Shown: positions 3,427 to 26,434 of the stretch, piece by piece
Position numbering within the stretch: the stretch's first letter is position 1
How the letters are laid out: each line of letters opens with the position of its first letter
NCBI GenBank assembly: GCA_964373795.1
Contig: CAYJVY010000007.1
Location: 60,001-92,000, forward strand
Length of the DNA: 32,000 nucleotides
Origin: an uncultured archaeon
Lineage (GTDB): Archaea; Iainarchaeota; Iainarchaeia; Iainarchaeales; DATDZZ01
Direction of reading: 5' to 3'
The notes under the pieces: generated by a model
What the model was told of the DNA's origin: nothing
The model's input: the letters and a program-made list of their open reading frames with translations, nothing else
Databases searched by the model: none
Made by a program: the position numbers and the translations under genes

Positions 3427-4356
3427 ATGAAAACAATTTTAGTTACAGGCGGAGCAGGATTTATTGGAAGCCATTTATGTGAAGCATTGCTTTCGCAGGG
3501 CCACAAAGTAATTTGTGTTGACAACTTTATTACTGGTTCAAAAAAAAATATAAATCACTTGTTTTCAAATAAAAATTTTTCCTTAATTGAACAAGATATT
3601 TGCAAGCCACTTGAATTAAAGGAAAAAGTTCATGAAATTTATAATTTGGCTTCAATTGCTTCTCCAAAATTTTATTATAAGTATCCCATTGAAACTCTAC
3701 TGGTTGGCTCTGTTGGGGTAAAAAACATGTTGGATTTGGCTTTAAAAAACAATGCAAAGTTTTTGCATTCCTCTACTTCAGAGATTTATGGTGATCCTTT
3801 ACAGCATCCACAAACTGAAAGTTATTGGGGAAATGTTAATCCAATTGGTGAAAGATCTTGTTATGATGAATCAAAAAGATTTGCAGAAACATTAATAATG
3901 ACTTATCATAGAAAACATTGTTTGAGTTCAAGAATTGTTCGCATTTTCAACACATATGGCCCTAAAATGAGTGAAGGAGATGGAAGAGTTATTCCAAACT
4001 TTATTTCTCAAGCTTTAAGCAATAAACCTTTAACTGTTTATGGTGATGGCTCTCAAACTCGAAGTTTTTGCTATATAGATGACTTAGTTGAAGGCCTTGT
4101 TAAAGCAATGAATTCTGAATATAATTTGCCAATTAATTTAGGCAATCCAAATGAGACAACTATTCTTGAACTAGCAAAAAAAATAATTAAGTTAACTGAT
4201 TCTAAATCTAAAATTAATTTTCTGCCTTTACCTAAAGACGATCCAGCGAAACGCAAACCCGATACTTCTTTAGCAAAAAAAGAATTAAATTGGCAACCAA
4301 AAATTTCTTTAGAAGAAGGTCTTAAAAGATTGTCACATCAAATATCATCTACTTAG
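3427..4356 (+). CDS. uxs: UDP-glucuronate decarboxylase (UDP-xylose synthase) type SDR
   Basis: [12 protein letters not shown] Rossmann motif, catalytic YDESKRFAE and [19 protein letters not shown], typical of the UXS/ArnA-decarboxylase clade. It follows ugd in the same operon. TAG stop at 4354-4356. Confidence 0.8.
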
Positions 4357-4361
4357 AAGGT

Positions 4362-5067
4362 ATGTTAGTGAAAGAAAAACCTTTTGCAGTTATTATTCCA
4401 ACCTATAATGAAGCAAATAATGTTGGTAAATTGATTTCTTTAATTTTTCAACAAAAAATAAACGTTAGATTAATTGTAGTGGATGATGATTCTCCTGATT
4501 TAACTTGGAAAATTGTAAGAAAATTGAATGATAGAAAAATAAAAGTTGTGAGAAGAATTAATGAAAAAGGAGTCGGCAGAGCAATTTTAGACGGAATTAA
4601 AAAATCTAAGGGAGGGTTAATTCTTTGGATGGATTGTGATTTTGGCATGCGTTCTAAATATATTCCAAAGATGCTGAAAGAAATAAAATATTAGGATATT
4701 GTAGTTGGTTCCAGATATGTTAAAGGTGGAATGGATAATAGAGATTTTATTAGAAAATTATCTAGTTATATAATAAATTTTTTAGCAAACATTGTTTTGG
4801 AACTTATGGTTTTAGATTATACCACTGGTTTTGTTTTAGCAAAAAAACAGGTTTTTAAAAATGTTTCTTTTGATTCGGCTGGACATGGAGAATATTGTAT
4901 TGAATTTTTATACAAAGCAAAAAAACAAGGTTTTAAGTTGAAAGAAATTCTTTATGATTAATGAAAGAAGGGTAGGACAGTCCAAAACAACTAGATATAT
5001 TTTTTCAATATTTCTACATACATTCAATTATATCAAAAGAATCATCAAAATAAGATTTAACCTTTAA
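4362..5067 (+). pseudogene. Dpm1-like family 2 glycosyltransferase, disrupted (in-frame TAG plus frameshift)
   Basis: The N-terminal part reads AVIIPTYNEANNV...VVDDDSPD...WMDCDF. An in-frame TAG sits at 4692-4694, directly before the conserved DIVVGSRYVKGG. The frame changes near 4948-4953, and the conserved C-terminal NERRVGQSK is only readable in frame 1 (4954-5067). Confidence 0.8.
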
Positions 5068-5094
5068 TGGCGTTTAAAATCTTTATACTGGAGG

Positions 5095-5747
5095 TTAGTG
5101 GGAAATATATCCCACAGCAATTGCATTGGCACAAGAATATGGCGCAGAATATTTTAAATTTTGAATATCCTCCAGTGTAACTTCTTTCCAAATGTTCCAA
5201 TGGGAAATTCTTTTTAAGTAATATTGTGAGGTGAATCCAATTCTTTTATTCTTAATAGCGACATCAAGATTTGGGTTATATCCAAGTGGAATTGTTACAA
5301 AAATTTTTCCACGCTTTTTTAAATGTTTTTTTAACTTTTTTATTGCTCTAAAAATTTTTTTTGGTTCTTTTGGAGTTTCATCAAATCCAATATGTTCTAA
5401 AGTGGAAACACTAATTATTAAATCATATTTTTTTTAGGCTTGAAATTAACTATGTCTTCGTTAATTACTCCTTCAGCTTTTTCATATTTATCAACAATGT
5501 CATGTTTAAATGGAAAATATTGTGATAAAACATTACCAACTTCTAAAATATTGCCTTTTTGGCAAGAATGAATCTCACTTAATGCAAGTGGGATTTCTAC
5601 AGCTCTTTCATTTCTCCACACCATATTAAGCCAATTACAACAGTACTTATATTTTTTATTCCTAAAAATAAAACTAGGGCCAATGATTTTATATAAGAAA
5701 AAAAAAGATCTAAGAATTAAATATTTAATATTTAAAAATAATGTCAT
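5095..5747 (-). pseudogene. class I SAM-dependent methyltransferase-like gene, frameshifted at a homopolymer
   Basis: The upstream part (5418-5747) ends ...NEDIVNFKPKKNMI*. Shifting frame at the A8 run (T8 on the plus strand, 5428-5435) continues as YDLIISVSTLEHIGFDETPKEP...GKIFVTIPLGYNP... to a stop at 5095-5097. The plus-strand ORF 5231-5437 is its antisense shadow. Confidence 0.7.
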
Positions 5748-5783
5748 ACTTTTAATTAGATTATTAAATATTTAAAAATGTAG

Positions 5784-5882
5784 TCACGATTTCTTGTAAA
5801 AAAGTGTTTCCTATTTGTAAACAATAGATATGTTTCTTTAGAAGAAGGATTAAAGAAGTTAATTAAAGAAAGAAATTTTTGA
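5784..5882 (+). pseudogene. orphan C-terminal remnant of an SDR epimerase/dehydratase
   Basis: A short stop-to-stop frame ends ...YVSLEEGLKKLIKERNF*. This resembles the C-terminal SLEEGLKRL of the UXS gene at 3427-4356 and GLKKTIEW of rfbB. No start codon or upstream SDR body is present. Confidence 0.35.
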
Positions 5883-6024
5883 TGACCGTCTTACTGAAGA
5901 TTGTATGTGAAGCAATTACAGAGAATATAGTAAAAAATGGGATTTAATCGAAAACTGGTTCATTTCGTTATTACTTAAATTTAAAATACTTTCAAAGAAA
6001 TAATCATTCTATTAAGTGGTTTGA

Positions 6025-10176: not shown

Positions 10177-11391
10177 TTAAACTATTTCTGGAAAAGGAAT
10201 TGGAATAATAAATTTTCCTTTAAATCCTTTTTCTTTGAGTTTTGGAATAATTATATGTTTAATATTCCAAGCCAAAAGTAAAGCATATTCAGGTTGGTCT
10301 TCAAATAACTGTTTTTCGTCTATTACTTTAATATGCATTCCAGGACTATATTTTCCTATTTTTAATTCATTTCTTTCACAAAGATAATCTAAAATAAATG
10401 GCCCTATTTTGCAAAAATTTAGTAAAGTATTTCCTTTTGCTGGAGCGCCTATTCCTACAATTTTTTTGCCTTTTGATTTTAAATCATTTACTATGTCTAA
10501 CAATTTTTGTCTGTTTTCTACAACTTTTTGCCCAAATTTTGTAAAAGTTTCTTTTGTATACAATCCTGCTTTTTCCTCTTCCATTAATGTTTTTGAAACA
10601 TTTTCAATTATTTTGTATGCATTTTTTTTGCAAGCATATACTCTTAGCGAACCTCCATGAGTATCAACTCTTTTAACGTCAAAAACATCCAAGCCATATT
10701 TATTGAACAAATAAATTAATGGTTTTAATGAATAATACCTTAAATGTTCTGCATAAATTGAGTCGTATTCCATTTCATGAATTAAATCCAATAAATAATG
10801 GGATTCTTCAATGAATACTCCGTCATTTGTTAATAGTAATTTTATTCCTTTCATTAAAGAATCTAGTTCTCTTACATGAGCGAAAACATTTGTTGCAGTT
10901 ATAATTTTTGCTTTACCATTTTCTTTTAAAATTTTTTTTGCAGTTTCTTCATTAAAAAATTCAGGTAAAGTTGGAATTCCTTTTTTTACAGCTATTTTTG
11001 CTGCTTCGGATGGATCAACTCCTAATATTTTTATTTTATCAGGTAAATAAGCTTCTAATAGGGTTCCATCGTTTGAACCAATATCTATAACAAAGTCTTT
11101 TGATGAAAGATTAAATCTTGGAATTGCTTCTTTAACTAGTGCATGAAAATTGTCTTTTAAGTTTTTGTTTTCTCCAGTAAGATATACAAAGCTATCAGTG
11201 AATAGAATTTTTGGGTCAACTGCATAACCTGTTTGAACTAGTTTACATTTTTCACAAAAAAACAAGTCTAATGGATAATGTGTTTCAGGTTTTATTAATT
11301 CTTCTTTGCTTAAAAATTTATCACTTGGAGGTTGATGCCCTAAAGATAGTACTTTAATTAAGTTTTCGTTTTCACAAACTTGGCATTTCAT
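10177..11391 (-). CDS. NDP-hexose C-methyltransferase (TylCIII-type), paralog 1
   Basis: N-terminal zinc ribbon CQVC...LG.QPP...FFCEKCKLVQ, class I SAM fold VIDIGSNDGTLL and TATNVFAHV, and a C-terminal domain ending GFKGKFIIPIPFP. The start lies 2 nt after the upstream SDR stop. Confidence 0.8.
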   Translation of the reverse strand: MKCQVCENENLIKVLSLGHQPPSDKFLSKEELIKPETHYPLDLFFCEKCKLVQTGYAVDPKILFTDSFVYLTGENKNLKDNFHALVKEAIPRFNLSSKDFVIDIGSNDGTLLEAYLPDKIKILGVDPSEAAKIAVKKGIPTLPEFFNEETAKKILKENGKAKIITATNVFAHVRELDSLMKGIKLLLTNDGVFIEESHYLLDLIHEMEYDSIYAEHLRYYSLKPLIYLFNKYGLDVFDVKRVDTHGGSLRVYACKKNAYKIIENVSKTLMEEEKAGLYTKETFTKFGQKVVENRQKLLDIVNDLKSKGKKIVGIGAPAKGNTLLNFCKIGPFILDYLCERNELKIGKYSPGMHIKVIDEKQLFEDQPEYALLLAWNIKHIIIPKLKEKGFKGKFIIPIPFPEIV

Positions 11392-11393
11392 TT

Positions 11394-12386
11394 TTATTTC
11401 CCCTTTTTATTAAAGTATTTTTCATACCATTTAAAAGTTTTTCCAAGTCCTTCATCTAAATTTGTTTTTGGTTTAAAACCTAAATCTACAAGCCTTGATA
11501 TATCTGGGCATCTTCTTGAAACACTTCCTTTTGGAGCTGGATGAATGTCTATTTCTGGATTTACGTTTGCAATTGTGAAAATTTTTTTTGCTAAATTCAT
11601 TATTTTGATTTCTTCATCACTTCTTCCAATGTGAATTGTTTGAGCAGTTGTTTTAGGGCTTTCCATTACAATTTGTGTTGCTTCAATTGCGTCATCAATG
11701 AAGCAAAAAGTTCTAGTTTCTTGCCCTCCAAATATTTTGAATGGATTTTCTTTTTTCACTATTCGTTCAATAAATTGAGGAATTACATGTTCTTCCCCCA
11801 TTCGCGGACCATAAATATTGTGATATCTGATAATGCAAAAATTCATTTTATGCAAATGGTGGTAACAATTTAATGTTACTTCATTCATTATTTTGCTTGC
11901 GCCGTATGACCATCTAACATTTGATGGATTATCAATGCAGAGGGGAACGTTTTCTGGAGTTGGAATTGGGAATTTTTTTCCTAAAATCTTTAAAGTTCCT
12001 GCATAGGTTTCAGAACTTGAAGAAAACAATATTTTTCCGTGCTTTGATTTAACAAACCAATCCAATAAATTGATTGTTCCAATTACTCCTACTTTAATTA
12101 CTTTGTCTGGAATTTTGTAAAAATTTTCAGTTCCATTAATTGCAGCTAAATGGTAAACAAAATCATATTTTTTTTCTAATTTTGAAAATTCATTTGCATT
12201 AGTAATATCCATTTTAATGAAATCAGTGTTTTTGTTTTCTAAGAGTTGTTTAAACTCTTTATCTTTTTTTCCTCTAGCAAAATTATCCATTATGGTTACA
12301 TGGTATTTTTCTGCTAATTTTTTGGATAAATGAAATCCAATAAATCCTGCTCCGCCTGTAACTAAAACAGTTTTTAATGTATTCAT
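11394..12386 (-). CDS. NAD-dependent nucleotide-sugar epimerase/dehydratase/ketoreductase (extended SDR)
   Basis: [14 protein letters not shown] and catalytic YGASKIMNE, with extended-SDR length. Its first 12 codons and promoter are repeated, inverted, at 24607-24770. Confidence 0.8.
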   Translation of the reverse strand: MNTLKTVLVTGGAGFIGFHLSKKLAEKYHVTIMDNFARGKKDKEFKQLLENKNTDFIKMDITNANEFSKLEKKYDFVYHLAAINGTENFYKIPDKVIKVGVIGTINLLDWFVKSKHGKILFSSSSETYAGTLKILGKKFPIPTPENVPLCIDNPSNVRWSYGASKIMNEVTLNCYHHLHKMNFCIIRYHNIYGPRMGEEHVIPQFIERIVKKENPFKIFGGQETRTFCFIDDAIEATQIVMESPKTTAQTIHIGRSDEEIKIMNLAKKIFTIANVNPEIDIHPAPKGSVSRRCPDISRLVDLGFKPKTNLDEGLGKTFKWYEKYFNKKGK

Positions 12387-12500
12387 GTTATTATTTAACT
12401 AGAAGTTAAAGTTTTTATATCCTAGTAATACAAACTTGTAATACTTGTTTTAAGTAATTGTTTGAGTTTTTGTACTAATAAACCTTTTTAAAGTTTTATT
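12337..12500 (-). repeat. inverted repeat arm L (promoter region plus first about 17 codons of the SDR gene)
   Basis: The reverse complement aligns by hand with 24607-24770. That gives a 40-nt block with 1 mismatch and 1 indel, a roughly 26-nt diverged patch, then about 99 nt with roughly 4 differences, including ATGAATACATTAAAAACTGTTTTAGTTACAGG. Confidence 0.85.
12405..12418 (-). promoter_or_regulatory. BRE/TATA-like box ATAAAAACTTTAAC upstream of the SDR gene
   Basis: Part of inverted repeat arm L, 18 nt upstream of the start codon. Confidence 0.4.
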
Positions 12501-13794: not shown

Positions 13795-14736
13795 TTATTT
13801 TTTTTTGAATTCTTCTTTTAATGTTTGAATTGTTTTTTTCATTCCGGAATTAAAATCTGTTTTTGCAGTGAATCCTAGAGCTTGTTTTGAAAGTGAAGTG
13901 TTTGCAATAATTTTTTGAATTTCTGTTGCAACATTTTCTTTATGGTTTAAAGGAACATTTGTTTCAAGTAATTCATTTATTTTCATAACTAGTTCATTTA
14001 AAGTAGTGCTTTCGCCAGTTCCAATATTGAACGATTTTCCATCCATATTTTTTGGAGCCTTTGCTGCTTTAATGAATCCTTTAACTATGTCTGAAACAAA
14101 TACAAAATCTCTTTCTTGAGTTCCATCTCCATTAATTGAAGGAGCTTTTCCTTGAAGTATTTGCTCAGCAAAAATTGATATTACTCTATTTTTCATTCTA
14201 GGCCCATAGGCATTGAAGATCCTTAAACAAATAGTTGGCAATCCTTTAACATCGTTAAAAAATTTTGCATAAAATTCACCCATAACTTTAGTGAATCCAT
14301 AAGGGCTGTTTGGTTTGAATGGATCTGTTTCAGGAGTTGGATCATGTTCTGGTTCACCATAAATAATGCAAGTACTTGGAAACAAAAATCTTTCAACAGA
14401 GTTTTCATGACAAGCTTTTAAGACATTCAAAGTTCCCCCGATGTTAACCGAGTTATATGCTTCTGGAATTTTAATTGATTCTCCAACATAACTTAATGCA
14501 GCCATGTGAAAAACAAACTTTGAATCCTTTACAGCGTTATTTATTTCATTAAAGTTTCTTATATCTCCTTTAAGTATTTTAACCTCGTTTTTTACTTTCT
14601 CGAGATTTTGCATGAAGCCTGTACTAAAATTATCGAAAACTGTTACTTCAAAATTTTCTTTAACTAGTCTTTCCACTAAATGGCTTCCAATAAATCCTGC
14701 TCCACCTGTTACAACTACTTTTTCAGTCATAAGCAT
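13795..14736 (-). CDS. NAD-dependent nucleotide-sugar 4-epimerase-like SDR
   Basis: [18 protein letters not shown], catalytic YGFTKVMGE and INGDGTQERDFVFVSD. Its stop directly abuts the stop of the convergent dehydrogenase gene. Confidence 0.8.
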   Translation of the reverse strand: MLMTEKVVVTGGAGFIGSHLVERLVKENFEVTVFDNFSTGFMQNLEKVKNEVKILKGDIRNFNEINNAVKDSKFVFHMAALSYVGESIKIPEAYNSVNIGGTLNVLKACHENSVERFLFPSTCIIYGEPEHDPTPETDPFKPNSPYGFTKVMGEFYAKFFNDVKGLPTICLRIFNAYGPRMKNRVISIFAEQILQGKAPSINGDGTQERDFVFVSDIVKGFIKAAKAPKNMDGKSFNIGTGESTTLNELVMKINELLETNVPLNHKENVATEIQKIIANTSLSKQALGFTAKTDFNSGMKKTIQTLKEEFKKK

Positions 14737-14777: not shown

Positions 14778-16049
14778 TTGGTTGTTGTTATGAGCAAATT
14801 TTTTGAAGTAAAGGAATGCAGAATTTGTAATTCAACTAATTTGAAAAAATATTTGGATTTAGGTGAAATGCCTTTAGCAAATGCATTGGTTGATCTTTCA
14901 AGTAAAGAAAAAGACTTGTTTTTTCCATTGCAGTTATTGTTTTGCAAGAATTGCTTTTTGACTCAATTAAGTGTAGTTGTAAATCCTGAAATATTGTTTT
15001 CAAATTATCCTTATCAAACATCTATTTCGAGTACTTTTCAAAAGCATTTTTTTGAAATGTCTAAAGAGGTTGCAAAACTTTTTCCCAAAAAAAATGAATG
15101 CCTTGTATTAGATATTGCAAGCAACGATGGCTGTTTATTAGAGCAATTCAAAAAAACTGGTTTCAAAGTTTTAGGAGTTGAACCCGCAAAAAATTTAGCC
15201 AAAATTGCTGAAGAAAAAGGAATTCCAACTATTCCCGAGTTTTGGAATGAGGGCGTAAGAGAAAAAATTATTTCAAATTATGGCAAGCCACTGGTTGTAA
15301 CTGCTACAAATGTTTTTGCACATGTTCACGATGTTAAATCTTTTGCTGAAAATGTTAAAGAGGTTTTAACAACTGATGGAGTTTTTATTCTTGAATTTCC
15401 TTATGCATTAAATTTGTTTGAGAAAACAGAGTTTGATACAATTTATCATGAACATTTATCTTATTTTTTAGTTCATCCTTTAATTACTTTGTTTAATGGC
15501 CTTGAAATGCAGGTATTTAATATTCAAGAAATTCCAATTCACGGAGGAAGTATTAGAGTTTTTGTTAAAAAATCTGAAAATAAAAAAATTAAAGTGAATG
15601 AAAAAGTAATTAACGAGTTTTTGGAAAGAGAAAAAAAGCATGGCCTGAATGAATTTAAATCATATGCTTCTTTTGCAGTAAAAGTTGGAAAAGTAAAAAA
15701 AGCTTTCACTAATTTGTTGAATAAATTAAAAGGTGAAAAAAAATTTGTTGCAGGTTTTGCAGCTGCAGCCAAAGCAAGTACTTTAATGCATTATTGTAAA
15801 GTTGGAAAAGAGCATATTAGGTTTATTATTGATGACGCTCCATTTAAACAAAACAAGGCTTTTTCAGGAAATCGAGTTCCAATTTATTCAAGGGCAAGGC
15901 TTGCTGATAACCCGGATTATTTGATCCTGTTTGCTTGGACTATTGCTGGAGAATTGATTAAAAAAACTAGAGAGCGAGGATTTAAAGGCAAATTTATTAT
16001 TCCAATTCCTTTTCCAAGAATTATTTTGAGTGAATCTGAATTGCTTTGA
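14778..16049 (+). CDS. NDP-hexose C-methyltransferase (TylCIII-type), paralog 2
   Basis: Zinc ribbon CRICNS...LGEMPLANAL...LFCKNCFLTQ, SAM fold VLDIASNDGCLL and TATNVFAHV, and C-terminal GFKGKFIIPIPFP. The likely true start is the ATG at 14790 (MSKFFEVKE). Confidence 0.8.
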   Translation: MVVVMSKFFEVKECRICNSTNLKKYLDLGEMPLANALVDLSSKEKDLFFPLQLLFCKNCFLTQLSVVVNPEILFSNYPYQTSISSTFQKHFFEMSKEVAKLFPKKNECLVLDIASNDGCLLEQFKKTGFKVLGVEPAKNLAKIAEEKGIPTIPEFWNEGVREKIISNYGKPLVVTATNVFAHVHDVKSFAENVKEVLTTDGVFILEFPYALNLFEKTEFDTIYHEHLSYFLVHPLITLFNGLEMQVFNIQEIPIHGGSIRVFVKKSENKKIKVNEKVINEFLEREKKHGLNEFKSYASFAVKVGKVKKAFTNLLNKLKGEKKFVAGFAAAAKASTLMHYCKVGKEHIRFIIDDAPFKQNKAFSGNRVPIYSRARLADNPDYLILFAWTIAGELIKKTRERGFKGKFIIPIPFPRIILSESELL

Positions 16050-22185: not shown

Positions 22186-23256
22186 TTGGTGATAAAAATG
22201 AGTGAAAAAAAAGCTTTACTTACTGGTGGTGCAGGATTTATTGGAACAAATGCTGCCAATTATTTTTTGAAAAAGGGGTGGGAAATAACTATATTAGATA
22301 ACTTTTCTAGAAGGGGCACAAGAGAAAATGCTAATTGGTTAAAAAATCTTTTTCCAGAAAAACTTAAAATAGTTGAAGCAGATATTGTTACAAATTTTAA
22401 TGTGTTAAAAAGTAAAGTTAAAGAAAGTGATTTAATTATTCATTTAGCTGGACAGGTTGCTGTAACTACTTCTATTTTAAATCCGAGAGACGATTTTAAA
22501 GTGAATGCCTTAGGAACATTTAATGTTTTAGAAGCTTTAAGAAAAACAGATTCAGATGCTACATTAGTCTATCCCTCGACCAATAAAGTTTATGGAAAAA
22601 TGCAACAACTTGAAGTTCAAGAAAAAGAAACGCGCTATATATATAAAGATTATTCTAGTGGAATTCCCGAATCAATGCAGTTAGATTTTTTTTCCCCTTA
22701 TGGATGTTCTAAAGGAACTGGGGATCAATATGTGCGAGATTATGAAAGAATTTATGGTTTAAATACCGTTGTATTTAGACAAAGCTGTATTTATGGTGAA
22801 AGGCAATTTGGAATTGAAGACCAGGGATGGATTGCATGGTTTGTTATTTCCTCAATATTAGGCAAGCAAATTCATATTTATGGAAATGGAAAACAAGTTA
22901 GAGATGTATTATATGTAAATGATTTAATTGAAGCATATGAATTGGCACATCAAAAAATTAGTTTTTGTAGAGGACAGATTTTCAATATTGGAGGAGGAAC
23001 AGACAGATCAATGAGTTTATTAGAGTTACTTAGTTTTTTGGAAGAACTTGTTGGGAGAAAAATGAATTATATTTTTGAAGATCAACGACCCGGAGATCAA
23101 TTAATTTATATTAGTGATATTTCTAAAGTTCACGATAAGCTTGGTTGGACTCCTAAAACAAGTGTAAATGAAGGTGTGAAAAAATTAGTTGATTGGGTTT
23201 TTGAAAACCAAAAGTTAGTGAAAACTGTTTTAGCAGATTTATTGAAAAAAGTTTAA
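22186..23256 (+). CDS. CDP-paratose 2-epimerase-like SDR
   Basis: [18 protein letters not shown]...LDNFSRRG...NWLK, HLAGQVAVTTS, STNKVYG and SPYGCSKGTGDQY...FRQSCIYGERQFG.EDQGW closely follow the pattern I recall for RfbE/Tyv-type 2-epimerases. The likely start is the ATG at 22198. Confidence 0.7.
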   Translation: MVIKMSEKKALLTGGAGFIGTNAANYFLKKGWEITILDNFSRRGTRENANWLKNLFPEKLKIVEADIVTNFNVLKSKVKESDLIIHLAGQVAVTTSILNPRDDFKVNALGTFNVLEALRKTDSDATLVYPSTNKVYGKMQQLEVQEKETRYIYKDYSSGIPESMQLDFFSPYGCSKGTGDQYVRDYERIYGLNTVVFRQSCIYGERQFGIEDQGWIAWFVISSILGKQIHIYGNGKQVRDVLYVNDLIEAYELAHQKISFCRGQIFNIGGGTDRSMSLLELLSFLEELVGRKMNYIFEDQRPGDQLIYISDISKVHDKLGWTPKTSVNEGVKKLVDWVFENQKLVKTVLADLLKKV

Positions 23257-23293
23257 AGTAATGATCATTTTTTATGAGGGCATTACTCAATTT

Positions 23294-23306
23294 TAAAAAC
23301 TTTACT
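23294..23306 (+). promoter_or_regulatory. BRE/TATA-like box TAAAAACTTTACT upstream of the orphan rfbB fragment
   Basis: It ends 16 nt before the GTG at 23323. The upstream ATTACT element is also shared with the 24677 and 12429 copies. Confidence 0.3.
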
Positions 23307-23352
23307 AGAATCTATTAAGTACGTGGGCAGAACTTTTCTTATTACGGGTGGT

Positions 23353-23577
23353 GCAGGATTTATTGGTTCGAATTATGTTGAATTTCATTTAAATAAATAT
23401 CCTGAAGATGAGGTAATTGTTTTGGATAAATTAACTTATGCTGGTAGAAAAGAAAATTTAAAAGAATTTGAGTCAAACTCAAATTTTGAATTTGTTAAAG
23501 GAGACATTTGTAATAAAAAATTGGTTGAAAAACTGGTTAAAGATGTTGATGTTGTAATTAATTTTGCTGCTGAAACT
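23353..23577 (+). repeat. 225-bp perfect direct repeat, copy 1
   Basis: Compared base by base with 24757-24981, and identical throughout. Confidence 0.95.
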
Positions 23578-23584
23578 ATGACAA

Positions 23585-23686
23585 TATGCAACAAGAATCA
23601 TACTTCAAAACACAACTATGCAACCAACTACTCTAACTACAAACCAGTTAAGCCAACATGCTCAACAAAACCACAAGTTATGCAAC
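23585..23686. repeat. three exact TATGCAAC octamers in a C-rich, G-poor block
   Basis: TATGCAAC occurs at 23585-23592, 23617-23624 and 23679-23686, each in a different reading frame. A 7/8 copy, TATGCAAA, is at 23730-23737. Confidence 0.6.
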
Positions 23687-23836
23687 AGAGCATCACTCCT
23701 CGCCGATGAATTAATTTTTTAATCCTTTCTATGCAAACTTTGTGATTAGGTTATGGTGGAGAAGAAAAGAATAATGAAAAAATGGCGAATCTTTCTTGAA
23801 ACCATTTTTAAATGTAGAAAAAACAGAGTTGTTTAA

Positions 23837-24511
23837 ATGAAAACCAATCAAACATTTGAAAGCAAAGATCTTAAGGAGCAAAAAGAATATGCAGAACATT
23901 ATGAGGAATTTTCAGAACTGGAACTATTTAATATAAAAATTCTTAAAAAAATAGCCAAACACCTAAAAGAGCCCATACTTGATGTTGGTTGTTTTACTGG
24001 GAGGAAAGCAGCGTTTTTTTATGAAAATGGGTATAAGGATATTTCTGGATGTGATATTTCAAATAACTCCATCAAACAAGCAAAAAAATCATACCCCTTC
24101 ATAAACTTCTTCCAACATGATATGGTAAAAAGTTCAACAAGTGAAAAATACAATTCAGTAATCTGCTTTCAAACAATTGAGCACATTTTTAACTATCATA
24201 GATTCTTAAAAAATATTGTTGGTTCATTGAACAATGGAGGAGTGGCGGTTATTGAAACGCCCAATGCGTGCAGCATAATTACTAGAGCAAGGCTACTACT
24301 TGGTGATGCTAGGAATTTTACAGGAAACATTGATGAGTCACATATAAGGTTTTTCAGTAAGACCTGTCTAGAGAAAGCAATGGAAAAACAAGGGATGACT
24401 ATTGTTCAGTCGTTTGGCTACAATATTAGGCCAATTGTCAAACCAATTGAGTTTATTTCTTCAACTAGTTGGAAAGAAGTGCTTGTTGTAATTGCAAAAA
24501 AACAACTCTAA
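23837..24511 (+). CDS. class I SAM-dependent methyltransferase
   Basis: SAM-binding motif ILDVGCFTGRKAAFF...GCDIS and motif II/III region YNSVICFQTIEHI...LNNGGVAVIETP. It lies inside the insert between the two rfbB repeat copies. Confidence 0.75.
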   Translation: MKTNQTFESKDLKEQKEYAEHYEEFSELELFNIKILKKIAKHLKEPILDVGCFTGRKAAFFYENGYKDISGCDISNNSIKQAKKSYPFINFFQHDMVKSSTSEKYNSVICFQTIEHIFNYHRFLKNIVGSLNNGGVAVIETPNACSIITRARLLLGDARNFTGNIDESHIRFFSKTCLEKAMEKQGMTIVQSFGYNIRPIVKPIEFISSTSWKEVLVVIAKKQL

Positions 24512-24523
24512 AAAACTCACAAA

Positions 24524-24531
24524 TTTTTTTT
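24524..24531 (+). terminator. oligo-T tract after the methyltransferase gene
   Basis: A T8 run lies 13 nt downstream of the TAA at 24509-24511. Oligo-T is the usual archaeal termination signal. Confidence 0.3.
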
Positions 24532-24606
24532 ATGCTGATTTAGGCGTCCCAGTCTAGAAAAATTGTGAAACTCCTGTTGTAATTAAAATCTAGATTTATA
24601 TTACCA

Positions 24607-24770
24607 AATAAAACTTTAAAGAGGTTATTAGTACAAAAACTCAAATTATTTCCCCCAACTTATGTTGCAAATTTGTATTACTAGGATATAAAAACTTTAA
24701 CTCACTAGTTAAATAATAATATGAATACATTAAAAACTGTTTTAGTTACAGGGGGAGCAGGATTTATTGG
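24607..24770 (+). repeat. inverted repeat arm R (promoter region plus first about 17 codons of rfbB)
   Basis: See arm L. The encoded N-terminus [17 protein letters not shown] is identical in both genes. Confidence 0.85.
24688..24701 (+). promoter_or_regulatory. BRE/TATA-like box ATAAAAACTTTAAC upstream of rfbB
   Basis: It ends 19 nt before the ATG at 24721. The same box on the minus strand at 12405-12418 ends 18 nt before the ATG at 12386. Confidence 0.4.
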
Positions 24771-25692
24771 TTCGAATTATGTTGAATTTCATTTAAATAA
24801 ATATCCTGAAGATGAGGTAATTGTTTTGGATAAATTAACTTATGCTGGTAGAAAAGAAAATTTAAAAGAATTTGAGTCAAACTCAAATTTTGAATTTGTT
24901 AAAGGAGACATTTGTAATAAAAAATTGGTTGAAAAACTGGTTAAAGATGTTGATGTTGTAATTAATTTTGCTGCTGAAACTCATGTTGATAGATCAATTC
25001 AAGGACAAGCAGAGTTTCTTGAAACAAATATTATTGGAACTTACAATTTATTGGAAGCCTCACGAAATTCAAGTGTTAAAAAATTTTTGCAGATTTCAAC
25101 TGACGAAGTTTATGGTTCGGTGGAAAAAGGTTCTAGCTTAGAAACGGATGAATTAAAGCCTCGAAATCCTTATTCTGCTTCAAAAGCAGCAGCTGATAGG
25201 TTTGCTTATTCTTATTTTGCAACTTATGGATTGCCTGTTTTAATTACTCGTGCTTCAAATAATTATGGTCCAAAACAATTTCCGGAAAAGGTTTTACCTT
25301 TGTTTATTACAAATTTGTTAAAAGGAAAAAAAGTTCCATTGTATGGTGATGGAAAAAATGTTCGAGACTGGCTTTACGTGGAAGATCATTGCAAGGCATT
25401 AGATGTTGTTTTGCAGAAAGGCAAATTTGGAGAAGTGTATAATGTTGGAGGAAATTGCGAACTTCAAAATATTGAATTAACTCATAAAGTTTTAAAGGCT
25501 TTAGGAAAAGGAGAGGAAATGATTGAATTAGTTAAAGACAGGCCAGGACATGATAGAAGGTATTCATTAAATTCAAGCAAATTAGAGGTGCTTGGATGGA
25601 AAACTGAAACAAGTTTTGAAGAAGGGTTGAAAAAAACAATTGAATGGTATAAAAAAAATGAAGCTTGGTGGAAACAATTAATAAAAAGTTAA
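24721..25692 (+). CDS. rfbB: dTDP-glucose 4,6-dehydratase
   Basis: [29 protein letters not shown], catalytic YSASKAAADRF and C-terminal DRPGHDRRYSL. Confidence 0.9.
   Translation: MNTLKTVLVTGGAGFIGSNYVEFHLNKYPEDEVIVLDKLTYAGRKENLKEFESNSNFEFVKGDICNKKLVEKLVKDVDVVINFAAETHVDRSIQGQAEFLETNIIGTYNLLEASRNSSVKKFLQISTDEVYGSVEKGSSLETDELKPRNPYSASKAAADRFAYSYFATYGLPVLITRASNNYGPKQFPEKVLPLFITNLLKGKKVPLYGDGKNVRDWLYVEDHCKALDVVLQKGKFGEVYNVGGNCELQNIELTHKVLKALGKGEEMIELVKDRPGHDRRYSLNSSKLEVLGWKTETSFEEGLKKTIEWYKKNEAWWKQLIKS
24757..24981 (+). repeat. 225-bp perfect direct repeat, copy 2 (inside intact rfbB)
   Basis: Identical to 23353-23577. Confidence 0.95.
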
Positions 25693-25705: not shown

Positions 25706-26434
25706 ATTAAAGGAGTTATTTTAGCTGGGGGCACTGGTTCAAGGTTAAAGCCTCTTACAAATGTAACAAATAAGCATTTGCTTCCGGTTTACGATAAGCC
25801 AATGATTTATTATCCAATTGAAACTTTGAAGTCTGCAGGCATAAAAGATATTTTAGTTATTACTGGAACTCATCATGCTGGAGCAATTTTTAATCTTTTA
25901 GGTAGTGGAAAAGATTTTGGAGTAAATTTTACTTATAGAGTTCAAGATGAAGCTGGAGGAATTCCAAGCGCAATTGGCTTAGCTGAAGGCTTTGTTGGAA
26001 ACGATAAATTTGTTTCCATTAATGGAGACAATATTTTAACTCATTCAATTAAAAGCTTTGTAAATGAATTTGAAAAAGGCAATGAGGGAGCAAGAATTTT
26101 ATTATATAATGGAACTGTTGAGCAAGCAAAAAAGTCTGGAGTAGCAGTTTTAAAAGGAGATAAAGTGCTTGAATTAATTGAAAAACCATTAGATCCTCCT
26201 TCTACAATGATTTCAATTGGAGTCTATATGTATACTTCAAAAGTTTTTGATGTAATTAAAACATTAAAGCCTAGTGCTAGAGGAGAAACAGAGATAACTC
26301 ATGTTAACACTCATTACTTAAAAAAAGGCTCACTAAAAGCAAACGTAATTGAAGGGGAATGGCTTGATGCAGGAACAGTTGAAGAACTATTAGAGTCAAA
26401 CATTAAATTAAAAAAATTGGCTGAAAAAAAGTAA
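25706..26434 (+). CDS. rfbA: glucose-1-phosphate thymidylyltransferase-like nucleotidyltransferase, probable non-canonical ATT start
   Basis: The frame is open from 25685 and encodes (I)KGVILAGGTGSRLKPLTNVTNKHLLPVYDKPMIYYP. The essential GGTGSRL loop lies upstream of the first canonical start (TTG 25778). AAGGAGG at 25691-25697 is 8 nt before the ATT at 25706. Confidence 0.75.
   Translation: MKGVILAGGTGSRLKPLTNVTNKHLLPVYDKPMIYYPIETLKSAGIKDILVITGTHHAGAIFNLLGSGKDFGVNFTYRVQDEAGGIPSAIGLAEGFVGNDKFVSINGDNILTHSIKSFVNEFEKGNEGARILLYNGTVEQAKKSGVAVLKGDKVLELIEKPLDPPSTMISIGVYMYTSKVFDVIKTLKPSARGETEITHVNTHYLKKGSLKANVIEGEWLDAGTVEELLESNIKLKKLAEKK

Follow-up and report, generated by a model that had tools for sequence, protein, structure and literature searches.

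In the galactose-initiated O-antigen clusters of Salmonella, recombination between clusters has been described together with wzy remnants and a partial duplication of wzy (PMC3715488). Here we consider a scar of a comparable kind in a 32-kb stretch of DNA (hereafter the window), which has a G+C content of 28.4%, contains zero Ns, and is a glycan-biosynthesis locus throughout. In this scar, a perfect 225-bp direct repeat (R) of the 5' part of rfbB, the gene for dTDP-glucose 4,6-dehydratase (RmlB), flanks a segment that carries a gene for a foreign-looking methyltransferase (MT). The upstream copy of R belongs to a truncated rfbB and the downstream copy to an intact one. The scar is another instance of the recombination known from glycan loci, in a lineage that is little known and probably archaeal, and not a new kind of system.

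As in O-antigen and capsule clusters, the setting is a polysaccharide locus of nucleoside diphosphate (NDP)-sugar genes and glycosyltransferases, a dead fragment stands beside a functional copy, and blocks of differing composition or origin meet at a junction, with rml genes at the boundary. Unlike in those clusters, the host has a G+C content of 28%, is uncultured and is probably a DPANN archaeon, and there is no insertion sequence (IS) or H-repeat at the junction. Moreover, the fragment is a perfectly identical direct repeat around an insert, with one junction on what appears to be a microhomology in a cofactor motif.

Campbell-type single crossovers (pop-in/pop-out, as in insertion-duplication mutagenesis) share with this scar the direct homologous segments around an insert, one truncated and one complete copy, and precise excision. 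They differ in that no vector or circle is identifiable here, the insert is without replication or integration function, and the copies of R carry distinct heads, termed X1 and X2, which are not explained by a circle carrying R alone. Homology-facilitated illegitimate recombination also resembles the scar, in which one end is joined at a 14-nt GxGxxG motif and the other without meaningful homology, and the DNA brought in is of foreign composition. However, in the classical cases a long homologous anchor lies on one side and the target is not duplicated, whereas here 225 bp are duplicated. This duplication suggests the involvement of two sister chromosome copies or of a replication template switch.

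Integron cassettes, including those in archaeal metagenome-assembled genomes, are likewise single-gene, ~1-kb, promoter-poor foreign cargo in a gene array. In contrast, the repeat that flanks the cargo here is target coding sequence and not an att site, and no attC-like inverted repeat of 60-140 nt lies at the 3' end of the cassette. We rejected an integron cassette given that no IntI integrase was found in the 32 kb, and that a coarse test of 24512-24606 and 23578-23752, made without a dedicated attC model, gave no imperfect palindrome of attC size and only a 7-bp hairpin at 23647-23666.

Results

Anatomy of the scar

The scar consists of the following elements.

23323 to 23709, + strand: truncated rfbB open reading frame (ORF) of 128 residues, made of 85 RmlB residues and an unrelated tail of 44 codons, with a TGA stop at 23707-23709
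23323 to 23352, + strand: head X1 of the truncated ORF, with a GTG start, reading MGRTFLITGG
23353 to 23577, + strand: copy 1 of R, 225 bp, 100% identical to copy 2, starting with the 14-mer GCAGGATTTATTGG
23578 to 23709, + strand: C-rich, G-poor and T-poor block (42% A, 29% C, 11% G, 18% T)
23715 to 23720, + strand: T6 run, 6 nt after the stop of the truncated ORF
23753 to 23836, + strand: 27-codon ORF whose TAA abuts the ATG of the MT gene; no family, atypical codon score (-1.01)
23837 to 24511, + strand: gene for a class I S-adenosylmethionine-dependent MT (Methyltransf_23, E = 2.5e-20)
24512 to 24606, + strand: 95 bp with no origin assigned, including a T8 run
24524 to 24531, + strand: the T8 run, 13 nt after the MT stop, putatively terminator-like
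24607 to 24756, + strand: module X2, a promoter region with AAAACTTTA at 24610 and 24691, and the first 12 codons of rfbB
24757 to 24981, + strand: copy 2 of R, 225 bp, 100% identical to copy 1, within the intact rfbB
24721 to 25692, + strand: the intact, chimeric rfbB, encoding an RmlB of 323 residues with a full-length family match

The layout is thus head X1, R, foreign DNA, head X2, R and the remainder of rfbB, and it has the same topology as the products of Campbell-type (pop-in) insertion-duplication. The original prediction held that 23353-23577 and 24757-24981 are identical, and base-by-base comparison confirms it. The identity ends abruptly, with zero additional matching bases on either side, and a repeat search found R to be the largest direct repeat of the window. 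A chance origin is impossible, because 225 bp are identical within 32 kb at 28% G+C. To the left of the copies, 15 of 22 nt match, which is the level between any two paralogues of the short-chain dehydrogenase/reductase (SDR) family in the window across the TGG-coding motif (alignment A1). To the right the sequences are unrelated, with ACT followed by ATGACAAT (ATGACA) in one copy and by CATGTTGA (CATGTT) in the other, and they share at most a 3-nt ATG microhomology at a one-base offset. The codon score of R (-0.61) is very host-like.

Copy 2 had been placed in an intact rfbB, and its product bears this out. It scores 468.3 bits against TIGR01181 (cut-off 365.1; profile positions 2-321 of 321), covers Pfam GDP_Man_Dehyd completely (positions 1-332 of 332), and its alignment with solved RmlB structures spans the whole protein (PDB 6bi4, E = 4.5e-115). 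The extended-SDR motifs, namely GxxGxxG, the TDEVYG acid/base pair and YxxxK (as PYSASK), are present and align with 6bi4. The best homologues of this RmlB are 75-76% identical and lie on short contigs with differing upstream genes, and a scan of a genome collection reached ~60% identity at best, which is too distant for synteny.

Copy 1 does have its own GTG start, leaves the RmlB reading and runs to a stop, as had been described, with the departure coming after residue 85. Its ORF matches RmlB at residues 5-85 only (Pfam; TIGR01181 profile positions 2-84 of 321), scores 101 bits against TIGR01181, far under the cut-off, and is without TDE, YxxxK and the substrate-binding C-terminal half. The ORF is a pseudogene fragment, a dead 5' fossil of rfbB, and not a member of the RmlB family. 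Among 5.8 billion proteins there was none near-identical to the 128-residue product (best match 64-68%), and the 44-codon tail had no match and an atypical codon score (-1.17).

Both copies of R lie at codon phase 0. In the computed product of recombination between them, 1,404 bp are removed precisely and an uninterrupted RmlB ORF of 321 residues is left, in agreement with the earlier proposal that the cassette could be excised by this route. This is the length of the closest orthologues, P0002 and P0004. The junction of the deletion allele would read GCTGCTGAAACT and then CATGTTGATAGA after the X1 head (X1-R-HVDRS), and the restored gene would follow a promoter-like motif at 23296. The features of a Campbell-type product are therefore found together: in-phase direct target repeats flank the insert, one gene is complete, and excision restores the gene.

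A breakpoint in the cofactor motif

Module X2 and the 14-mer at the left edge of R have counterparts elsewhere in the window.

12347 to 12500, - strand: sibling of X2 (88% match), made up of the promoter region of the SDR gene 11394-12386 (- strand) and its initial codons
3454, 12350 (-), 14700 (-), 22231, 23353 and 24757: exact GCAGGATTTATTGG sites, in six extended-SDR genes

The region upstream of the intact rfbB had been described as duplicating the promoter and initial codons of the SDR gene that starts at 12386. We recovered this match, with 24607-24760 being 88% identical to the reverse complement of 12347-12500 (97% over 24705-24770 and 79% over 24605-24702). The sibling region consists of the intergenic promoter and the first 13 codons of that SDR gene, and the 97% block spans the 66 nt around the start codon. 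As far as the 14-mer GCAGGATTTATTGG, the 5' region of rfbB tracks the SDR gene at 12386, and from there on it is exactly like copy 1 (alignment A1). The downstream rfbB is therefore a chimera with its breakpoint inside the 14-mer, and we read it as a working gene.

The 14-mer, which codes for the AGFIG of GxGxxG, does not vary among the six SDR genes of the window (alignment A1, including the gene at 14736 on the - strand). At the DNA level the cofactor motif is near-identical because of extreme AT codon bias, and such a segment could seed recombination among SDR paralogues. Given that the left edge of R falls on this 14-mer common to the SDR genes, at least one of the heads was probably joined by microhomology or short-homology recombination, and GCAGGATTTATTGG is likely a microhomology breakpoint between SDR paralogues. 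The position of this edge on the 14-mer and the in-frame 321-residue RmlB upon recombination are the new observations here. Around the 14-mer, similarity among some of the SDR genes extends up to 49 nt at 90% (3430-3478 versus 12326-12374).

Heads X1 and X2 resemble each other at the background level of SDR paralogues only. In length, X1 (MGRTFLITGG) equals the heads of the closest orthologues (MAKTVLVTGG, MSRKILVTGG), and also those of P0003 and P0004. X2 (MNTLKTVLVTGG) has the residues KTVLVTGG, identical at 8 of 8 positions to P0002 and P0004 and thus closer to them than the X1 residues are. At the DNA level the orthologues have diverged too far to show which head is ancestral. Regarding the idea that rfbB was rebuilt with a borrowed promoter and N-terminus, the chimera itself is evident in alignment A1, and either head may be the borrowed one.

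A foreign methyltransferase gene

Between copy 1 of R and module X2 lie 1,029 bp (23578-24606) that comprise the C-rich block, the 27-codon ORF and the MT gene. The MT matches Methyltransf_23 with 73 bits (cut-off 27) and has motif I as ILDVGCFTG at residues 47-55. No NCBIfam equivalog matched at its cut-off, so no substrate is assigned. Two smaller points of the original prediction also hold, namely that the stop of the 27-codon ORF abuts the ATG of the MT gene and that a T8 tract follows the latter.

Codon usage makes the MT gene the sole strong outlier among the 31 ORFs of the window, consistent with the oddity first noticed in it. Its G+C content at third codon positions is the highest (0.284, compared with 0.13-0.23 in the 30 others), and its synonymous-codon likelihood is the worst. 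Against 346 length-matched segments of 28 other genes the score corresponds to z = -5.1, and none of the segments is as low. The enriched codons are AGG (5 of 7 Arg), CCC (3 of 5 Pro), GCG and CTA. By this test the insert is compositionally foreign. We used the codon-level test in place of a strand-symmetric Markov k-mer scan, which is weakly discriminating and tracks G+C.

Relatives of the MT are few. A word-indexed search of 5.8 billion proteins returned one partial relative (46%), and a full HMMER scan of 1.84 billion representatives gave six matches at E<=1e-30, the best of them at 49%. By these counts the MT belongs to a rare subfamily. In a metagenome scan the closest relative (L082, 67% amino acid identity) was on a contig of 1,067 bp with a G+C content of 35.8%. 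Nucleotide homology to it (67.7%) is confined to 23876-24502, and the flanks are non-homologous. Phage and plasmid DNA gave no match to the insert, and no viral relative of the MT was found. The picture fits a horizontal transfer of the MT gene out of a lineage with somewhat higher G+C. Presumably, the enzyme adds a methyl modification to the glycan of the cluster.

The G-poor block reported after copy 1 is real, and no other 132-nt stretch of the + strand is as rich in C as 23578-23709 (0.295, compared with a mean of 0.127). It contains three of the five ATGCAAC heptamers of the window (23586, 23618 and 23680), and an ATGCAAA follows at 23731. The block had no match in Rfam (E<=1 across 23200-24800; gathering score for the whole window), no fold signal on either strand (z ~0) and no tandem repeat. 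An RNA, a repeat and an inverted gene piece were ruled out on these results, together with the presence of stops in all minus-strand frames. We found no homologue of the block, and a 23-mer from it was absent from viral contigs.

Several kinds of mobile or intervening element were considered and rejected. For an insertion sequence or transposon, no transposase or integrase domain occurs in any ORF of the window, no inverted repeats were found at 23578/24606-24756, and the duplication is 225 bp long, compared with the short target-site duplications (2-15 bp) of such elements. A self-splicing intron or other structured RNA interrupting rfbB was set aside given the lack of an Rfam match and the fold z of ~0. 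No defining feature of a prophage is present in the window.

The surrounding locus and its host

The neighbours of the scar and the copies of the promoter-like motif are listed below.

22186 to 23256, + strand: SDR epimerase/dehydratase gene (geneX) that adjoins the scar on its left, matching Pfam Epimerase/GDP_Man_Dehyd over its full length
23257 to 23322, + strand: 66-bp spacer after geneX, with a T6 run at 23268-23273 and AAAACTTTA at 23296-23304, 27 nt before the GTG
25706 to 26434, + strand: RmlA-like nucleotidyltransferase gene (Pfam NTP_transferase, positions 1-242 of 245)
2039, 12407 (-), 12489 (-), 14757 (-), 23296, 24610, 24691 and 29912 (-): AAAACTTTA positions, mostly 20-45 nt before starts

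Both gene content (NDP-sugar and glycosyltransferase genes) and domain annotation identify the whole window as a glycan-biosynthesis locus. It encodes UDP-glucose dehydrogenases, a phosphomannomutase, nucleotidyltransferases, RmlD and a cupin sugar isomerase/epimerase, and further the six extended-SDR genes, C-methyltransferases, radical-SAM enzymes and many glycosyltransferases (GT) of families GT1, GT2 and GT4. No tRNA, Rfam family at gathering score, transposase or integrase was found in the 32 kb.

The named homologues of RmlB at 59-66% identity are mostly from 'Candidatus Diapherotrites/Iainarchaeum', Woesearchaeota and Altiarchaeota, with some bacteria mixed in. The motif AAAACTTTA occurs 13 times in the window, compared with 4.9 expected, and 0 of 100 shuffles reached 13. 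Eight of the 13 copies lie 20-45 nt 5' of start codons in the correct orientation. The motif looks like an archaeal promoter element of the B recognition element (BRE)/TATA type and hints at an archaeal host. Taking these sequence features together, we infer that the host is probably a DPANN archaeon. A scan for sigma-70 promoters and rho-independent terminators gave no enrichment over shuffles, and is not informative for an archaeal host. If the host is archaeal, the T6 run at 23715-23720 is a possible oligo-T terminator. Given that T-runs, which would act as terminators in an archaeon, directly follow the stops of geneX, the truncated ORF and the MT gene, these pieces may be separate transcription units.

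GeneX falls under every NCBIfam cut-off and has host-like codon usage. Its middle (22400-22950) has the lowest order-3 Markov likelihood in the window (z = -2.9) with a normal codon-usage score, which may reflect merely a higher G+C or a mosaic segment. On the other side, the RmlA-like gene adjoins rfbB, an adjacency seen likewise beside the closest RmlB orthologue, P0002. It has no ATG, GTG or TTG start before 25778, yet the codons for its essential N-terminal motif, GxGTRL (KGVILAGGTGSRL), begin at 25709. Where a Met would be expected there is an ATT codon (25706), 9 nt after GGAGG. Either the gene uses this rare start, or a start-codon mutation has crippled it.

Two other parts of the locus bear marks of rearrangement or decay. 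The GT2 gene at 4362-6024 (dolichyl-phosphate-mannose-synthase-like) is a pseudogene and a second decaying spot of the locus. An in-frame TAG at 4692-4694 is followed by ~90 further residues in the same frame and then by a frameshift near 4960, where the conserved RRVGQSK motif is shifted to the next frame, and after that by ~1 kb without an ORF that matches the family. Two paralogous C-methyltransferase genes (Methyltransf_13/14; 10177-11391 on the - strand and 14778-16049 on the + strand) are inverted relative to each other, share stretches of 54-70 nt at ~80% identity, and each adjoin an SDR gene with a similar head. The arrangement of these pairs suggests an older inverted duplication.

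Discussion

We favour, with moderate confidence, the explanation that the structure is a genuine-looking, ordinary insertion-duplication (recombination) scar in a recombination-prone surface-glycan locus. In the order of events and mechanism that we infer, a foreign segment of ~1.0 kb (C-rich block, 27-codon ORF, MT gene and oligo-T) would have entered the 5' part of rfbB along with the 150-bp X2 module, and the first 225 bp past the GxGxxG motif would have been duplicated during the insertion. The upstream copy would have been left as a dead 5' fragment that retained its own promoter-like motif, and expression of the downstream RmlB would start from a promoter module whose homologue precedes the paralogous SDR gene at 12386. 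For the joints themselves we favour an illegitimate event at the right end of R and recombination through short homology at the SDR 14-mer, in which sister chromosome copies may have taken part. The scar structure is metastable, and RadA/RecA recombination between the copies of R would delete the 1,404 bp and restore the 321-residue RmlB.

Several observations weigh against this explanation. Module X2 is 88% identical to its sibling, whereas the copies of R are 100% identical, and one simple event does not account for all of this. The single recent rebuild within the genome that was first envisaged fits poorly for the same reason. This contrast implies either that the duplications are of unequal age or origin, or that gene conversion maintains the identity of R. 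Accordingly, X2 either entered from a diverged donor along with the cassette, or R was homogenised by gene conversion. The explanation does not account for where the C-rich block came from. The foreign composition expected of the insert is borne out by codon usage, but is only modest in the strand-symmetric order-3 Markov scan, where the 3' half of the MT gene reaches z = -2.4 and the middle of geneX -2.9. The two lines of evidence for a DPANN host are the names of RmlB homologues and the BRE/TATA-like motif. The linkage of both copies on one molecule rests on the contig, with no reads or independent assembly of this population in the collections searched. Look-ups of the exact MT and RmlB proteins returned no record, and an exact 29-mer of R was absent from metagenome contigs and viral contigs. 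That a cassette interrupted rfbB and left the old 5' end as a fossil fits the anatomy; the associated claim that the ancestral rfbB lay directly downstream of geneX does not agree with the two relatives for which there is context, given that these have a GT2 gene or a 78-residue ORF upstream of rfbB.

It is unlikely, in our judgement, that the structure is an assembly artefact, in which the contig would thread a graph loop created by a 225-bp sequence common to two strains or loci. One source would then hold geneX-X1-R-rfbB without an insert and the other the MT gene upstream of X2-R-rfbB, and no genome would hold both copies. Perfect identity with razor-sharp edges is indeed typical of a repeat that was collapsed or re-threaded, the DNA evidently comes from a 95.6-kb metagenomic contig of an uncultured lineage, and the collections searched contain no independent assembly that confirms the structure. 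However, for a de Bruijn or overlap assembler the junctions of R with the C-rich block and of X2 with R must occur in real reads, and thus a truncated 5' fragment of rfbB abutting a foreign block would be real in some genome. The contig shows no Ns or other assembly marks, and a path that uses each edge once, from X1 through R into the insert and from X2 through R into the rest of rfbB, would be the correct resolution to expect for a two-copy repeat that is shorter than a typical insert size. We assign a similarly low probability to an old duplication in which the fossil and the chimeric rfbB have long coexisted, with differences between the copies of R continually erased by gene conversion. 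Polyploidy and efficient gene conversion are found in many archaea. Such a history would account for X2 being 79-97% identical to its sibling while R is at 100%, and for an identity that stops exactly at the homology limits on both sides, as in tracts bounded by non-homology. Yet the strongly unameliorated codon usage of the MT gene (z = -5.1) speaks for an insert that came in fairly recently, deletion should quickly remove a direct repeat of 225 bp that has no function and lies 1.4 kb from its twin, and X2 could equally have come from a diverged donor with the cassette.

More speculative still, and in our view very improbable, is that the repeats form a programmed or selected on/off switch, with R providing the sites for reversible pop-out and pop-in of a 1,404-bp MT circle. 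Such a switch would make glycan methylation vary across the population while a functional RmlB is always preserved. RmlB is intact in the present form and in the deletion form alike, with a separate promoter-like motif before the gene in each, and the cargo is a type of enzyme that modifies glycans, within a surface-glycan locus. Set against this, there is no recombinase and no specific site structure, the putative circle carries no replication function, and the protein, viral, phage, plasmid and metagenome searches gave no second example. General homologous recombination eases deletion and makes re-integration rare, and the dead fusion tail and the C-rich block appear accidental rather than designed. 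We give little credence to the idea that a polyploid DPANN archaeon toggles glycan methylation via 225-bp coding repeats around a 1.4-kb cassette, with RmlB kept in both states. If true, the MT on/off module would amount to recombinase-free phase variation of a surface glycan in archaea.

From a practical standpoint, annotation pipelines will call a spurious 128-residue 'dehydratase' at the fossil ORF. Returning to the insertion-duplication that we favour, the scar provides a clean, base-resolved example of the remodelling of a surface-glycan locus in uncultured microbes with small genomes, in which a foreign modifying enzyme was captured within a housekeeping gene of a sugar pathway, and the gene was rescued by a promoter and N-terminus module that it has in common with a paralogue. 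It suggests that the coding DNA of the Rossmann motif, near-invariant through extreme AT codon bias, can act as a portable recombination site among paralogues.

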